Virus record (IMG/VR): IMGVR_UViG_3300006065_000002 | From: a virus | Direction: 5' to 3' (one strand) | Length of the DNA: 64,000 bases | Part shown: piece by piece, positions 45,661 to 54,521 of the stretch | Layout: each line of letters opens with the position of its first letter | Numbering within the stretch: position 1 is the first letter of the stretch | Notes under the pieces: generated by a model | Databases searched by the model: none | What the model was told of the DNA's origin: nothing | Seen by the model: only the letters and a program-made list of their open reading frames with translations | Made by a program: the position numbers and the translations under genes

Positions 45661-45815
45661 TATGTTAGATAATGATGTTCTAATTACAGCCTTTTTATCC
45701 ATATCATTTATATTTAATATAGAATATTTACCAATCTTAATAAGTTTTATCTGTTAAGTCAAGTTTAGTAGTTCTAATCTCACACTACATATACACCCAA
45801 CCGTTATAGGAAATT

Positions 45816-46031
45816 TTATTTTTTCCCACGCTCAATTACAACATCCAACTTATCAAGAAGCGACATTATACTATCTAATCTTTTACCATTTGAGTAAGTC
45901 AACAATTCGGGGTCAATCTTATCTAATTCTTCTTTTGATAAGTTTTTAGATAGTTGTATCAATTCTTCTTCCTCAAATACATTTGCTTCAAGGGTTCTTC
46001 TTTTTTCAAGTAATTCAGCAAATCTGCTCAT
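45816..46031 (-). CDS. Cassette hypothetical protein
   Basis: 71 aa, between the 45803 and 46081 termini. Confidence 0.7.
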   Translation of the reverse strand: MSRFAELLEKRRTLEANVFEEEELIQLSKNLSKEELDKIDPELLTYSNGKRLDSIMSLLDKLDVVIERGKK

Positions 46032-46074
46032 AATTAAATTTGTTTAAGCCAACCCACAAAAAAATAAAACTATC

Positions 46075-46169
46075 CTATAACAAGCGGTTGGCAATATGCC
46101 ACAGGATAGTGCGTGTATTGAAATTAAATCCGTTGAAGTGGCACATCGCCAACCGCTCCAACGTTATGA
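46075..46169 (-). repeat. attC-like site
   Basis: ATAAC-AGCGGTTGGC...GCCAACCGCT-CCAAC-GTTAT. Confidence 0.8.
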
Positions 46170-46313
46170 ACAATAAACCCAACACACAATCCCAACAAAT
46201 ACAATTATACCAAACGATATTAACATCCAATTTGGTATTTTATGATAACCACATTCAAAACTAACTCGTTCCTCTTTAGGAACATTTGGTATAATTCTTT
46301 TTTTACTGTTCAT
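46164..46313 (-). CDS. 49 aa single-TM cassette peptide (not in ORF track)
   Basis: MNSKKRIIP...FGIIVFVGIVCWVYCS*; ATG directly after GTT, TAA inside the TAAC box. Confidence 0.6.
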   Translation of the reverse strand: MNSKKRIIPNVPKEERVSFECGYHKIPNWMLISFGIIVFVGIVCWVYCS

Positions 46314-46406
46314 AACAAAGTGTATAAGTAATGTGGCTAAATAAGTTTATCTGTAAAGTTGAAAGTATGTGCAAAGCCACACTACACATACACTCAACCG
46401 TTATGC
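46310..46406 (-). repeat. attC-like site
   Basis: AGTGTAT..TGTGGCT / AGCCACA..ATACACT. Confidence 0.8.
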
Positions 46407-46557
46407 ACAATTGCTTTTTAAGTTATACGTATAATTTGAAATTTTGTTACAAGCAACTGTGCATAACAGCAAATATAACCAATGCTATCAGTGCTTCGTA
46501 GTAAAGTTTGTGTAAGTTTAACCATAATTTTTATTTTTTTCTCCCAATCGCACAAAT

Positions 46558-47106
46558 TTAAGAATAAATATTGTTTGAATCACTAAATTTAGTATTTTTA
46601 ATTGATTTAATTTGGTTTGGTTTTGTTGCAATTATCACATTTTCCTTTTCCCCAAATCTATCATGTTTTAATATTGCACCATCATTTGATGTGTTTATAT
46701 ATTCACCACCAACATTTACTTTATAAGTTGGGTTTCTTAAATTTATAAAAACTGCTAATTCTTTATCACCATAATTTGAATAACCGTACCTATCATCAGA
46801 AAAGTAGAATAAATTACCTCCAATAAATCCTTTCTTATAACTACCCTTCGTATTATCAAATTCTTCAAAATCAGCAAAAGTTCTGTGATAAACAACTAAA
46901 GGTTCGCCATTTTCATCAACTACTTTACTTGAACTATTTGGATTTTTCTCCCAATCACCAAACCAATCTTTAAACTCAGGAGTTCTAACCAATTTATACA
47001 ATTCTGATGTTAAATTGCTTTTATTACCATTTGGTGCTAATAGCGTTTCATTCTGTTCATTCAAATATTTACGTATAGTAGTTTTTATAAATTTTTTCAA
47101 TTCCAT
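46558..47106 (-). CDS. Leader-tagged ADP-ribosyltransferase-like (ART-PolyVal-type) protein
   Basis: MELKKFIKTTIRKYLNE; FKDWFGDW, VVDENGEPLVVYHRT, FYFS, VFINLRNP. Confidence 0.7.
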   Translation of the reverse strand: MELKKFIKTTIRKYLNEQNETLLAPNGNKSNLTSELYKLVRTPEFKDWFGDWEKNPNSSSKVVDENGEPLVVYHRTFADFEEFDNTKGSYKKGFIGGNLFYFSDDRYGYSNYGDKELAVFINLRNPTYKVNVGGEYINTSNDGAILKHDRFGEKENVIIATKPNQIKSIKNTKFSDSNNIYS

Positions 47107-47222
47107 ATTATTAAATAGTTTTATTATATATAAATATTCAAATTTTAAATTTCCTTCCCACAAAAATAAAACAAAAAGGTTTCGTTCTTCGTAGGTAGTT
47201 TTTTAGTAGATTTCTGCACAGC

Positions 47223-47316
47223 ATATAACAAGGTGTATAAGAAAGTTTGCTATCAGCAGTTGTGGTAATCTGAAAGTTCATCTAAGCAAACCTTCTCATA
47301 CACCCAACCGTTGGCA
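47223..47316 (-). repeat. attC-like site (major family)
   Basis: GGTGTATAAGAAAGTTTGCT / AGCAAACCTTCTCATACACC. Confidence 0.85.
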
Positions 47317-51697: not shown

Positions 51698-52180
51698 TTA
51701 ATATACTTGGTTATATGGTTTATTAAAACCATCAATAAGTCTTTTCAAAATATCCCTTCCAGAACCACCAGTTGGGTCATTTTTTAATAAAATTTTATAA
51801 TATCTTTTTAATGAATCTATATCGTTTTTTAAAAAAGCGATTGTTCCCATTTGATAATTTGGTTCAATTGAATCTCTAACATTGTTTTTGGACATATATT
51901 TAACTGCATTATCATAATCATTAATGAAAGCATATAATTGTCCAATATGCCATAATATTGCACCAATTTGATAATCTTCTAATTCTGATTTATTGGAATT
52001 AAGATAACTTAACATATATTTAATTGCTTCCTTTTCTTGACCACTATGTACTAATTTTCTCCACACACTTTTATTAATATCATCAAATTCATCATAACTA
52101 ATGTTATAATCATAGATAGATGAATTTTCATTCAGAAATTCTCTTATTGTGGTTTTAATAAACTGTTTCAAATCTTTCAT
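51698..52180 (-). CDS. Leader-tagged TPR-like helical protein (cassette)
   Basis: MKDLKQFIKTTIREFLNE; WHIGQLYAFINDYDNAVKY. Confidence 0.7.
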   Translation of the reverse strand: MKDLKQFIKTTIREFLNENSSIYDYNISYDEFDDINKSVWRKLVHSGQEKEAIKYMLSYLNSNKSELEDYQIGAILWHIGQLYAFINDYDNAVKYMSKNNVRDSIEPNYQMGTIAFLKNDIDSLKRYYKILLKNDPTGGSGRDILKRLIDGFNKPYNQVY

Positions 52181-52385
52181 TATTTTCCTTTATATGTAAA
52201 TACATTAAAATAATAAAAACCCACCCTTCTTTTTCTTTTAAAATTTTTGCTCGGTTCTCCGATTGAAGTTTATTGGTAGTAATCCACACCTACACATAAC
52301 AAGGTGTATAAGAAAGTTTGCTATCATCAATCGTCAGTAGTTCTGTGCATTATACGTTCTAATTAGCATTTTGTTTCAAAAACTT

Positions 52386-52922
52386 TTAAAAATTTTCCAC
52401 TCCTAAATTAATAATTTTAGCTGATTTTCCATTATAATATGGTTCTGGCACAATATATTCAATATCGTGTTTTCCATATACTTGGTTGGTAATTACAATC
52501 AAATCCAAACCTCGCCATTCTTCTGCTAAATTTTCAGCATCTTCTCGTTCCATATCACCATATTCTACCAAATCATCAATAATATATGATGTATCACCAC
52601 GCAATAAAGCATCAAATGCTTCTTGTATTGCTAAACTATCAAATCTACTTTTACTTAAATCAAAAATTGCTGGATTTTGTGAAATAATTTTTACTTTATA
52701 AACATAATCACCCCAAGATGTTTGTGGTATATTACTAAAAAACATACCATCTATTCTCGTTGATGAATTTGGTTTTAATTCTATCTTATCAAAATTAAAG
52801 TCATCAATTTTTGAATTAGTTGAGTGGTATGCTATAAATTCTTTATTGATATTAACTTGTTCATTCAAAAACTCTCTAATTGTGGTAGCAATAAATTTGC
52901 GTAGTTTCATATCTTTGTTCAT
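52386..52922 (-). CDS. Leader-tagged ART-like protein (cassette)
   Basis: KLRKFIATTIREFLNE; AYHST, GMFFS, WGDYVYKV. Confidence 0.6.
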   Translation of the reverse strand: MNKDMKLRKFIATTIREFLNEQVNINKEFIAYHSTNSKIDDFNFDKIELKPNSSTRIDGMFFSNIPQTSWGDYVYKVKIISQNPAIFDLSKSRFDSLAIQEAFDALLRGDTSYIIDDLVEYGDMEREDAENLAEEWRGLDLIVITNQVYGKHDIEYIVPEPYYNGKSAKIINLGVENF

Positions 52923-53031
52923 AGTTTTTTAGTTTATATATAAATATTCAATTTTAAAATTCCCACAGCACATTTTTAAAAGTTTTTGTTCAATGTTTCA
53001 ATCAAGTACTTATTGTAATTCACCGTACTGG

Positions 53032-53125
53032 TTATAACAAGGTGTATAAGAAAGTTTGCTATAAAGTTCAGTTGTAATTTGAAAGTTCATCTAAGCAAAC
53101 CTTCTCATACACCCAACCGTTAGCA
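53032..53125 (-). repeat. attC-like site (major family)
   Basis: Same arms as the site at 47223. Confidence 0.85.
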
Positions 53126-53601
53126 ACACTTAACTTGTCAAGTACCGTTTGAAATTGTTTATCTGTCATTTTCGTTTAATTTACCGTACAAATATAAGTA
53201 TTATTTTTGTATTCTCCAAATGTTTTTACAAATATTATTTACTAACTTTCAACATTCTGCAAGTGTCACTTCTCATATACGCAAACCGTTATGTGTAAGT
53301 GTTCCATTCATCGTTCTAATCAACATTTCGGTTGAAAATTTTAAAAGAAAAATCCAACGCACTTATTTTTTTTAATCTACTATACACTTCTGGTCTTTTT
53401 GACAAATATAATCTAACACTTTCAATACTATCCAAAGTTTCTGAATTAACTCTCACTTTATTTGAAGTGTCATATAATTCTAAAAATTTTTGATACACTT
53501 CATCTGGTGTATTTAGTTTTTCTAATTTTAAATACTTGTTAATTTCTTTACCATTTAATTTAATATCATCAAAAAAAACACGTTCAATGATTAAGAAATT
53601 A

Positions 53602-54309
53602 TTAAGTTTGCCAACGACAATCAGGACATTTCCAGTAAGGTTCAAACTCATCCCTACCCATTAAGCAATCAGGGCAAACCGATAATCTTTTTGTTTTATT
53701 TTTTCCAACGCTTTTTAAAAATGTTGATAATTTCACATCAGTTTCAATTAAATTCATATTTTCATCATAAACATCCCAAATCCATTCTTTCATATTTTTG
53801 GTATCAATTTTCACATTTACAATACAAACCACATCAATACCTTTTGTTACATCAAAAACTACTTGAAATTGTTTATCAGCAGTATTGTAAACTTTACAAG
53901 AATCATTAGATTTAAAAACAATACCCCAACCACCATATAAAAAATCTTTTTGGTATCTACTATCAATCTTTTTGTTGGTTAAATCGAATGCAAAACCAAA
54001 ATTACCATCAACAATTTCTTCCTTACTTTTTCTTGTTTTAGTAAATGAAGAATAATATGCACCAACCCCACGAAAACCATTTTGTAAAATAGATATTATA
54101 TTTTCTTTGGTTGTTGAATGAAATAACAACGTGTTTGTTGGTAATTTTATTGCTGAATTTGCTTTGTATGAAAATCCTCTCTGTGGAGTTTTTTCCAAAT
54201 TATTTACAACATTAACAAATTCATCAATTGTGTTTATTCTCGTAATATCTTTTTTTGAAACACTTTCTTTTAACATTTTTTCTTTTAAGGTGTCGATATA
54301 TTTTCTCAT
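53602..54309 (-). CDS. ART-like protein (cassette), chimeric C-terminus
   Basis: LLFHSTT...ILQNGF; overlaps a headless ORF at 53316-53651. Confidence 0.5.
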   Translation of the reverse strand: MRKYIDTLKEKMLKESVSKKDITRINTIDEFVNVVNNLEKTPQRGFSYKANSAIKLPTNTLLFHSTTKENIISILQNGFRGVGAYYSSFTKTRKSKEEIVDGNFGFAFDLTNKKIDSRYQKDFLYGGWGIVFKSNDSCKVYNTADKQFQVVFDVTKGIDVVCIVNVKIDTKNMKEWIWDVYDENMNLIETDVKLSTFLKSVGKNKTKRLSVCPDCLMGRDEFEPYWKCPDCRWQT

Positions 54310-54428
54310 TTATTGACTTATAAAATTTTTTATATATAAATATTCAAATTTTAATTTCCTTCTCACAAAAAATAAAACAAAAAGGTTTCGTTCTTCGTAT
54401 CAAAGTTTGTATGTTAAATCCGCACAGC

Positions 54429-54521
54429 ATATAACAAGGTGTATAAGAAAGTTTGCTATAAAGGTTAGTAGTAATTTTAAAGTTTATCTAAGCAAACCTT
54501 CTCATACACCAACCGTTATAG
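54429..54521 (-). repeat. attC-like site (major family)
   Basis: Same arms as the site at 47223. Confidence 0.85.

Follow-up and report, generated by a model that had tools for sequence, protein, structure and literature searches.

Organization of the cassette array

The window, a stretch of 64,000 nucleotides from a large phage, carries an integron-like cassette array (Table 1). In 10 of its 14 cassettes the first 8 nt are the exact complement of the cassette's own R''. Cassettes of this design were also found in Flavobacterium phage mymlan6-1 and in more than 80 contigs of uncultured phages. Damage is evident in several of the window's cassettes: c8 has a deletion of the leader arm, c9b and c11b have truncated trailers and c6 has a frameshift in its gene. 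At the site preceding c9b, L', R' and the first part of the trailer are missing. At c7, the methyltransferase (MTase) ORF reads through the cassette's trailer.

Table 1. Positions of the array, its cassette ends and related elements in the window.
Feature	Position	Strand	Details
Integron-like cassette array	45803 to ~56700	-	all ORFs on - strand; sites R'' to R' on + strand
G of G|TT boundaries, first eight	45803, 46163, 46400, 47310, 47730, 47850, 48179, 49148		
G of G|TT boundaries, last eight	50156, 51621, 53119, 53288, 54515, 55022, 55313, 56279		
c2 trailer, partner of c2 leader	46468-46552		degenerate
c2 leader	47107-47230	+	promoter-like block 47125-47141, box ~47153-47161, IR_R 47162-47178, then arm, R''
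c6 trailer	48179-48257	+	R' stem 48179-48195, arm ~48196-48229, IR_L 48230-48246, C-rich box 48247-48257
c6 leader recombination module	48955-49031	+	box 48955-48964, IR_R 48965-48981, arm 48982-49017, R'' stem 49018-49031
c6 attC-like core hairpin	49032-49148	+	L''-loop-L'-spacer-G
c7 (MTase cassette) trailer	49149-49224	+	R', arm with CTCCGAAT, IR_L 49199, box 49220
c7 (MTase cassette) leader	49974-50075	+	box CCATCGCTC, IR_R 50011, arm with CTCCGAAT, R''
c8 trailer	50156-50240	+	R', arm, IR_L 50207-50223, box-like CACCACAC
c8 short leader	51469-51539	+	promoter-like block 51489-51505, box 51517-51524, R'' directly after; without arm or IR_R
c9a type-B trailer	51621-51697	+	IR_L 51668, box CCACCCAC at 51688
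Type-B trailer copies	53288-53362 (c11a), 55313-55387 (c14)		
c9a leader	52181-52300	+	box 52220, IR_R 52236, arm with CTCCGATT, R''
c9b trailer, truncated	52340-52405	+	IR_L 52377-52393
c9b leader	52923-53038	+	promoter-like block 52935, box 52962, IR_R 52972-52988, arm, R''
c11b trailer remnant	53680-53712		IR_L at 53687
c11b leader	54310-54435	+	promoter-like block 54331, IR_R 54367-54384
Tag-coding leader, shared N-terminal tag MELRKFIATTIREYLNE	51415-51468	-	
Further copies of MELRKFIATTIREYLNE tag leader, in array	47053-47106, 48854-48907, 52127-52180, 52860-52922		
MELRKFIATTIREYLNE tag leader copy outside array	31468-31521		
Solo degenerate cassette outside array	31053-31600	-	tagged gene 31099-31521, type-B trailer remnant, hairpin with mutated R boxes

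The inner inverted repeat belongs to the cassette

According to the original prediction, a second inverted repeat sits about 50 nt from each cassette end. All motifs quoted for it were located, and the repeat is present in several window cassettes. At c6, CTTTTTGTTTTATTTTT (48230), 51 nt from its cassette end, and AAAAATAAAACAAAAAG (48965), 50 nt from the other, pair at 17/17 positions. AAAATTTTAAAA (51668) pairs with TTTTAAAATTTT (52236), and pairing is again 17/17 between CAAAAACTTTTAAAAAT (52377) and its complement at 52972; between the c9a and c9b repeats, matched changes are seen on both sides.

In 119 cassettes from related phage contigs, exact repeats were sought beyond the first 12 nt and the longest was recorded. 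It reached at least 13 nt in 27/119 cassettes as against 8/592 non-cognate trailer/leader pairs (Fisher 6e-16), and in only 1/226 intergenic sites, where the leader of one cassette was compared with the trailer of the next. Thus, the repeat belongs to the cassette and not to the site. Its occurrence is above chance, but only about a quarter of the cassettes carry it. At least nine unrelated repeat families were distinguished, each perfectly complementary and at like distances from the cassette end (trailer side 45-53 nt, leader side 49-55 nt). A short class also exists, whose repeat is a plain extension of the R stem (12/13 nt). The perfect pairing could come from one arm being copied off the other and not from selection for the fold.

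A probable composite attC-like site with crossover at G|TT

We read the inner repeat as the outer stem of a composite attC-like palindrome of ~270 nt. This palindrome would be in one piece only once the cassette is excised as a circle. Neither circular cassettes nor recombination events were observed; the metagenome run data consist of assembled contigs, in which rare circles would not show. The right end of the circle would comprise box, IR_R, ~35-nt arm, R'', L'', loop, L' and G, and would adjoin a left end made of the TT of R', a ~35-nt arm, IR_L and box. The folded site would then consist of the L stem, an R stem of 9-14 bp, two unpaired arms and an outer stem of 11-20 bp edged by C-rich boxes. 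The arms are expected to remain unpaired because they are direct and not inverted repeats (alignment score 7.1 direct, 3.2 inverted, 3.9 shuffled). A Xer/IntI-like tyrosine recombinase would cross over at G|TT and split the palindrome. As G|TT is off-centre in the palindrome, the outer stem would be seen ~50 nt inside each end after integration. The outer stem is dispensable for array membership, as about three quarters of the cassettes are without it.

The ends of the cassettes locate the crossover. R' and R'' of the same cassette are complementary at 9/9 positions in 80/166 cassettes, whereas a 9/9 match between both boxes of a single site was seen in only 3/269, which places the crossover at G|TT. 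When calculated as single-stranded DNA, the rejoined c6 site (277 nt, trailer plus leader) forms one hairpin of -35.8 (+) and -38.9 (-) kcal/mol, compared to -24.2 (+) and -28.2 (-) kcal/mol for c6 in its array context. The minus strand of the core is the more stable in 224/236 sites, G-T pairs replacing the A-C of the plus strand; this asymmetry is equally a signature of RNA structure on the gene-sense strand.

C-rich boxes mark module borders

A CCCAC motif had been described on both sides of the gene insert, and was found at 45825/46053, 48248/48960 and 51691/52220. In the array, CCCAC occurs 13 times on the plus strand against 2.9 expected (P ~1e-5) and once on the minus strand, and 10 of the 13 plus-strand copies are at a leader or trailer border. 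The motif is a real border box, but a degenerate one of 8-10 nt, and its consensus differs between the trailer side (~CCCAyCGCAC) and the leader side (TTTCCACCCAC). The recurrence of leaders and trailers was also confirmed. Identity is 82-85% over 93 nt among the trailers at 51621, 53288 and 55313, and 64-86% over 59-85 nt among the leaders at 47160, 48960 and 54365. The arms descend from a common ancestor and in many phages are found next to cargo genes that are not related to each other.

The boxes mark module borders. The flanks of the c7 MTase cassette and of a mymlan6-1 cassette are ~92% identical, and on either side the identity stops precisely at the box; the two MTases share only 30% protein identity. 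In lake and sediment metagenome contigs the match ends at the trailer box (48247 and 50223) and resumes at 51418 and 51427. In tagged cassettes the leader homology runs past the box, spans the promoter-like block and 17-22 codons, and stops right after (L/V)-N-E.

The original prediction explained the boxes by gene capture: empty hairpin cassettes (R', arm, repeat, one CCCAC loop, repeat, arm, R'') came first, and genes were inserted in the loop at GTGGG, duplicating the loop motif. The direct orientation of the boxes at the gene-side foot of both repeats, their position at the homology borders of the MTase pair and the metagenome contigs, and the near-identical flanks around unrelated cargos fit such an origin. 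However, no signal of target-site duplication was detected, the longest word shared by boxes being 4.10 within a cassette and 4.23 between cassettes. The differing consensus of the two sides and the extension of leader homology to the promoter-like block and tag codons also argue against capture, and an empty backbone was absent among 152 unique cassettes. The hairpin-with-short-loop pattern of two repeat families was not found in 2.9 million viral contigs, a search of modest power given only 16 exact type-1 leaders there. While the border boxes and shared arms stand, capture into empty hairpins appears very unlikely. If the repeat is the outer stem of a composite palindrome, no empty hairpin is needed, because off-centre cutting of a long palindromic site at circle integration would leave a repeat symmetrical about the cassette ends.

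Promoter-like block and N-terminal tag

A second module, made up of a promoter-like block and in some cassettes a tag, would lie gene-proximal to the leader box. A conserved AT-rich block is located 10-14 nt upstream of the ATG in each backbone cassette. It is promoter-like by position and conservation only; a sigma-70 scan of the AT-rich array DNA was uninformative on this block. The tag, 17-22 codons ending in (L/V)-N-E, is present in about half of the backbone cassettes and in 15/29 repeat-bearing cassettes compared to 11/121 others (P ~1e-6). Two tag families end at (L/V)NE, with sequence divergence straight after. By analogy, the tag resembles capsid-targeting propeptides cut by T4-type prohead proteases after L/I-x-E; T4 gp21 cleaves after this motif, and in T4 the targeting sequences stand at the N-terminus (PMC9026906). 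Of five complete huge phages with such arrays, four encode a gp21-type protease (PF03420). The tagged cargo includes an ART-PolyVal ADP-ribosyltransferase.

Alternatively, these elements could be regulatory modules of the PeSL type, the repeats, boxes and AT-rich blocks serving as terminators and promoters. Their sharing would then stem from general homologous recombination, as in the hyperplastic regions of T4-type phages, and they would have no part in site-specific recombination. The conserved block upstream of every backbone cassette's ATG would agree with this, as would the mosaic modules, in which promoter-like blocks are joined at the box to different repeat families. In another phage the same cargo family lies between true terminator-plus-promoter repeats, and mini-circles are documented for the PeSL elements of T4-type phages (PMC2839356). 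However, each repeat has its only pairing partner at the opposite end of its own cassette and not in the neighbouring sequence that would share a transcript, the leader repeat is upstream of its own promoter-like block, and the repeat families are not uniformly U-rich along the direction of transcription. Precise G|TT crossovers and a dedicated recombinase linked to the arrays also speak against a purely regulatory role, which we consider unlikely.

Linked recombinase

In at least 24 loci a conserved recombinase of ~270 aa is encoded directly beside the first site, its 5' end ~50 nt from a G|TT boundary. It scores under the curated cut-offs of the integron-integrase and XerA models. No recombinase gene was found within the window or in mymlan6-1.

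The unit box-repeat-arm-attC-arm-repeat-box might itself be a miniature transposable element with terminal inverted repeats that entered CCAC-rich targets by genes, cassettes originating from two insertions followed by attC x attC recombination. The unit is contiguous in the circular form, its terminal inverted repeats lie between similar, non-identical direct boxes, as target preference predicts, and one architecture is common to several repeat families. Against this, matching repeats flank just 1/226 sites, no solitary element was seen outside arrays, the arrays are without an associated transposase and the sequence outside the repeats has no duplication. Such an element, together with the cassette origin by two insertions, is most improbable.

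Comparison with known systems

Among the closest known systems are integrons with their cassettes and attC sites, above all the sedentary chromosomal integrons, whose attC sites are long and near-identical (VCR type). Like attC, the phage sites are imperfect palindromes with conserved AAC...GTT boxes, one folded strand is preferred, and crossover is at G|TT, so that the first bases of a cassette pair with its own R''. The tyrosine recombinase has its 5' end beside the array as in integrons, and near-identical sites surround unrelated genes as in the VCR type. Unlike attC, the phage palindrome extends 60-70 nt past the R boxes (direct-repeat arms, outer stem, C-rich boxes) and is without evident single extrahelical bases. 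The ORFs lie on the strand opposite to that usual in integrons, have their own promoter-like block and often a shared N-terminal tag; the linked recombinase is short (~270-286 aa) and under the integron-integrase cut-off, and the carrier is a phage. The pdif modules of Acinetobacter plasmids are likewise gene modules bounded by Xer-type recombinase sites, but these are short 28 bp duplex sites in inverted pairs and not long hairpins, and we know of no common leader or tag in them.

Clusters of attC-like sites without integrase have been described from virulent phages, among them one that infects a flavobacterial host, and often contain DNA methyltransferase cassettes (Qi et al. 2023, PMC9892861). 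The window and mymlan6-1 are similar in having no integrase, whereas the extended arms, outer stems, boxes, tagged cargo and linked phage recombinase are absent from that description, in which the sites were tested with bacterial IntI1. As with PeSL, the array is a plastic region in the genome of a large phage, and its small ORFs are each framed by the same composite element. PeSL elements are proposed to shuffle via mini-circles (Arbiol et al. 2010, PMC2839356; PMC4122927), but their exchange is homology-based, with crossovers spread through the element and the recombinase not identified, whereas the phage arrays have a crossover fixed at G|TT, cassette-matched ends and a linked recombinase. 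In T4 internal-protein genes, too, a short N-terminal propeptide with a hydrophobic-x-Glu end is found on unrelated proteins (PMC9026906). The gp21-type protease in related genomes and the ADP-ribosyltransferase cargo, as T4 Alt, extend the likeness. The tags, known here from sequence, differ from the T4 targeting sequence in being 17-22 residues of unrelated sequence with the motif (L/V)-N-E and in being part of a mobile cassette.

The backbone thus probably consists of two travelling modules, the ~270-nt composite attC-like site and the promoter-like block with its tag, between which the cargo differs. The outer stem may aid folding of the free cassette for re-integration, the arms and boxes may bind proteins, and the tag may direct packaging.

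Inverted repeats inside the cassette ends

A backbone cassette of the array has a trailer at its left end (R', arm, inner repeat and C-rich box) and a leader at its right end (box, inner repeat, arm and R''). The motifs quoted in the original prediction were all found where it had placed them. The second inverted repeat, described there as lying about 50 nt from each cassette end, is perfect over 17 of 17 nt in cassettes c6 (48230 with 48965) and c9b (52377 with 52972); it is shorter in c9a (12 nt) and in c0 and c7 (11 nt each). Leaders and trailers do recur, as repeat families D1 and D7-D10.

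Pairing is a property of the cassette. On the related contigs, repeats of at least 13 nt beyond the R box were found in 27 of 119 cassettes versus 8 of 592 non-cognate trailer/leader pairs, and at the level of the site, where the leader of one cassette faces the next trailer, in 1 of 226. The repeat sequences are of nine or more unrelated kinds, all perfectly complementary, and lie 45-53 nt inside the left cassette end and 49-55 nt inside the right one. A short class has its repeat immediately after the R box (12/13 nt), where it does no more than extend the R stem. Adjacent cassettes often bear different repeat families, and both arms of a pair are therefore adjacent only in the excised circle, where leader end, core hairpin and trailer end would be contiguous. 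When the c6 site was rejoined in this way (277 nt) and folded as single-stranded DNA, one long hairpin was predicted, with energies of -35.8 and -38.9 kcal/mol for the two strands; the values for the c6 site in its array context are -24.2 and -28.2 kcal/mol. The second inverted repeat is thus best read as the outer stem of an unusually long attC-like palindrome, which would be cut off-centre at integration. Such a stem would account for the symmetry of the cassette ends, making an ancestral empty hairpin unnecessary. Pairing confined to the free circle suggests that control may be exerted at the re-integration step.

Three other roles for the repeats were considered. A gene-flanking transposon with the repeats as its termini was ruled out, as the sequence beyond the repeats is not duplicated and a transposase is lacking. 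Pairing of 5' and 3' untranslated regions in the mRNA was rejected because the cassette's own promoter-like block is downstream of the leader repeat. Inward-facing terminators, consisting of an arm hairpin followed by a T run, were dropped: one arm fits, but the repeat families are A-rich in some cases and T-rich in others, following no rule. That arm, in the leader of the methyltransferase (MTase) cassette (50026-50039, - strand), forms a small hairpin (TTCGG-AGAA-CCGAA), and the T-rich outer repeat comes next. It resembles an intrinsic terminator pointing into the cassette, a feature not general among the arm families.

Recombination sites and the crossover point

In the window and related loci, 270 sites and 166 cassettes were mapped. 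As in integrons, the sites are attC-type imperfect palindromes with R''/L''/L'/R' and AAC...GTT; their R boxes resemble ATAAC/GTTAT and depart from the strict RYYYAAC/GTTRRRY form. Sixteen G|TT boundaries were placed in the window, and in 10 of its 14 cassettes R'' is exactly complementary to the first 8 nt of the same cassette. Complementarity over 9 of 9 nt was seen between the two ends of one cassette in 80 of 166 cases versus 3 of 269 for the two boxes of one site (Fisher 3e-36). This pattern is the signature of an integron-like crossover at G|TT.

In integrons it is the bottom strand that folds preferentially, with extrahelical bases. Here the - strand folds more stably in 224 of 236 site cores. 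The asymmetry stems from G-T pairs on the - strand where the + strand has A-C mismatches, together with an unpaired spacer of 2 x 5 nt; single bulged bases are not its cause in these 236 cores. Integron cassettes are mostly promoterless and are read from a common promoter, with the ORF on the R''-to-R' strand; here all array ORFs lie on the opposite strand, and each backbone ORF has a conserved AT-rich block before it.

The arms, stretches of about 35 nt that separate the R stem from the outer stem, are unpaired. Arm-to-arm alignments scored 7.1 in direct orientation, 3.2 inverted and 3.9 after shuffling; the direct likeness is equal between cassettes and within them, and shared cores such as CTTCGTAT, CTCCGAAT or TTTCAAAT recur. 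We infer that the arms are candidate oriented protein-binding sites.

C-rich boxes as module borders

Every repeat has a C-rich box on its gene-facing side; the approximate sequence is CCCAyCGCAC for the box that follows the trailer repeat and TTTCCACCCAC for the one that precedes the leader repeat. The box bears only a loose resemblance to Chi-like or Xer-arm-like motifs. CCCAC-like motifs bordering the insert had been noted in the original prediction, and CCCAC itself is present 13 times on the + strand of the array versus 2.9 expected (1 on the - strand). When the window MTase cassette (49149-50156) was compared with a cassette of Flavobacterium phage mymlan6-1, the flanks were about 92% identical and, at either side, the likeness stopped at the box; protein identity between the two MTases is 30%. 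Contigs from lake and sediment metagenomes match as far as 48247 or 50223 and again from 51418 or 51427, and in some of them a promoter-like block typical of one kind of cassette is joined to a box and repeat from a different kind. The boxes mark the outer border of a conserved recombination module.

The original prediction went further, proposing that genes were captured into the loop of empty hairpin cassettes at GTGGG, with duplication of the motif. Its modular backbone is real, and ancient, with the boxes as module borders; GTGGG capture with motif duplication lacks the traces that it predicts. Across 29 cassettes, box likeness is 4.10 within one cassette versus 4.23 between cassettes, and the boxes therefore act as conserved elements rather than duplicated targets. 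The leader side of tagged cassettes contradicts capture at the box, as homology runs on through the AT-rich block and the tag codons. No empty allele was found among 152 unique cassettes, and those shorter than 300 nt all contain small ORFs, none being an empty hairpin. A search of 2.9 million viral contigs for unfilled hairpins of families 1 and 2 (a repeat and its complement 1-31 nt apart) gave no match; its power is modest, given only 16 exact type-1 leaders there.

Promoter-like block, N-terminal tag and cargo

Past the leader box lies a conserved AT-rich block (...TTGA-ATATTTATATAT...), 10-14 nt before the ATG of each backbone ORF. A sigma-70 promoter scan returned 71 sites versus 78.6 expected and is uninformative in DNA this rich in A+T. 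The block is followed by 17-22 conserved codons of one of two tags, MELRKFIATTIREYLNE or the MSEDIRKMIDKVKNFKQFVNE type, and homology ends right after (L/V)-N-E. As for a shared N-terminal propeptide, the two tag families are found on 26 of 150 cassette proteins whose downstream sequences are unrelated. They occur in 15 of 29 repeat-bearing cassettes versus 11 of 121 others (P about 1e-6).

In T4, unrelated proteins are sent to the capsid by short N-terminal propeptides, and the gp21-type protease cleaves after L/I-x-E (PMC9026906). The phage-array tags have (L/V)-N-E at their end; the motif of the T4 propeptide is L/I-x-E. Among five complete huge phages that bear such arrays, four carry the gene for a T4 gp21-type prohead protease (PF03420). 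One tagged cargo is an ART-PolyVal ADP-ribosyltransferase.

The cargo family of cassette c8 stands behind at least five different leaders, all ending in L-x-E. It is also found in ordinary gene rows without attC-like sites on three other phage contigs, in one of them between terminator-plus-promoter repeats of the PeSL kind. These relatives outside cassettes share 51-61% protein identity with the cargo, too distant for capture junctions, and were set aside as pre-capture alleles. In other phages, the family and its neighbour (L131 1102-2030; L132 340-410 and 1500-1570) carry another N-terminal leader, MKH(L/V)LN(F/Y)K..., or are placed between terminator-plus-promoter repeats of the PeSL kind, with no attC-like sites.

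Linked recombinase

In at least 24 related loci, a conserved tyrosine recombinase is encoded directly next to the first site. Its gene shares the strand of the cassette genes and has all the sites to one side; the 5' end lies about 50 nt from a G|TT boundary, and a normal trailer follows the boundary. The integron arrangement, a recombinase at the array end with its 5' end toward the first site, is thus present in related loci and not in the window, where no copy of the recombinase gene was found. The overlap of G|TT with the recombinase 5' end is a putative attI-like junction. The long TTG-started recombinase ORF probably reads through this junction, the true start being near residue 19. The protein scores 158 bits in two stretches against TIGR02249 (cut-off 265) and 186 bits against the XerA model (cut-off 220). 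It belongs to the Xer/IntI group, below the curated cut-offs of both models; by this measure it is not an integron-type integrase (IntI), a family marked by its own extra segment.

The linked recombinase bears on a reading of the backbone as regulatory PeSL-like modules, which explains part of the data. PeSL modules of T4-type phages are exchanged by homology within a promoter/stem-loop element (PMC2839356). Such exchange proceeds without a site-specific recombinase, whereas the crossover here is fixed and a recombinase is linked. A mobile attC element likewise explains part of the data; each of the two readings fails on cassette-level pairing, on the fixed crossover or on the absence of solitary units.

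Genome setting and decay

The window is AT-rich (G+C 26.6%) and reads as a portion of a large phage. It holds 17 tRNA genes, one with a CUA anticodon. All ORFs from 45,803 to about 56,700 are on the - strand, separated by hairpins of 80-120 nt that run from ...ATAAC to GTTAT... on the + strand. In IMG/VR contigs of 7 to 465 kb, 101 stretches contain an unchanged 24-nt segment of the most frequent hairpin. In the species-genome collection the same 24-mer of the core occurs only in 13 short contigs of metagenome bins from scattered taxa, a result that therefore does not point to a bacterial home. The sole match to the type-A leader in GenBank phages is one uncultured 635-kb phage.

Most of the window was recovered in sequencing runs from one hot-spring metagenome only, whereas the backbone-rich metagenomes are from lake, freshwater and sediment. 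In the latter, contig depth summed over site and backbone intervals is about 100-1000x that over the cargo intervals (45500-57000); the backbone is therefore common to far more cassettes than any single cargo.

Signs of decay are present in the window. Two pairs of cassettes are fused, both by deletion of half a site and the start of the next trailer. In the fossil cassette outside the array, the trailer remnant abuts the CUA-anticodon tRNA and the R boxes of the hairpin are mutated.

Features of the window and of related phage loci (L-numbers)
Feature	Coordinates	Remark
tmRNA	28731-29135	amid run of tRNA genes
Solo degenerate fossil cassette	31053-31600	outside array; tagged gene MKDLKQYIKTTIREFVNE..., type-B trailer remnant
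TnpB gene	34726-35952	amid run of tRNA genes
Ro60/TROVE gene	42084-43640	amid run of tRNA genes
GOLLD RNA	45045-45451	immediately left of array
68-nt palindrome built from attC loop	46401-46467	loop also seen in locus L024
c6 cargo gene	48260-48907	frameshifted
Cassette fusion c9a + c9b	52301-52376	
Site without L''	53240-53288	
Cassette fusion c11a + c11b	53652-53686	
Recombinase 5' end overlapping G|TT boundary	L039 4536-4600	with normal trailer arm
Recombinase 5' end overlapping G|TT boundary	L050 7864-7930	with normal trailer arm
Recombinase 5' end overlapping G|TT boundary	L037 1756-1820	with normal trailer arm

Implications for cassette biology

Cassette-matched R boxes are known from integrons, and in chromosomal integrons near-identical attC sites surround unrelated genes. 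Clusters of attC sites are already known in phages (PMC9892861). What is new is the composite long site with its arms, outer stem and boxes; a cargo that is inverted, tag-bearing and, to judge by its promoter-like block, self-expressed; and a short Xer/IntI-like recombinase linked to such arrays in phages of 38 kb to more than 460 kb. Compared with the textbook form, sites of the attC type can thus be much longer and of more composite build.

A row of DNA methyltransferase cassettes is found in the cultured Flavobacterium phage vB_FspS_mymlan6-1 (MN812227, 38.5 kb; L107 2395-3480), with the same long-arm backbone and an outer repeat of 18/18; no tyrosine recombinase gene was found in this phage. 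The design is therefore present in a cultured phage, a possible laboratory model.

We know of no account of how integron cassettes gain their recombination sites. For this question the phage system is unusually legible, having sharp module borders (the boxes and the tag end), many sequence families on one architecture, and the same flanks around cargos that are 30% identical. The backbone might even work as a fusion-expression vector of natural origin for proteins that the phage injects, with the boxes and the codon after (L/V)-N-E as joints of a dedicated cargo-loading reaction. This reaction would set each new ORF in frame amid a fixed recombination site, promoter and capsid-targeting tag. 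We consider this improbable; if true, de novo formation of cassettes could be observed along this route. Should the tag be a signal for capsid targeting, the arrays would be exchangeable libraries of phage-injected proteins, with relevance to phage-host conflict and use as a source of delivery tags.
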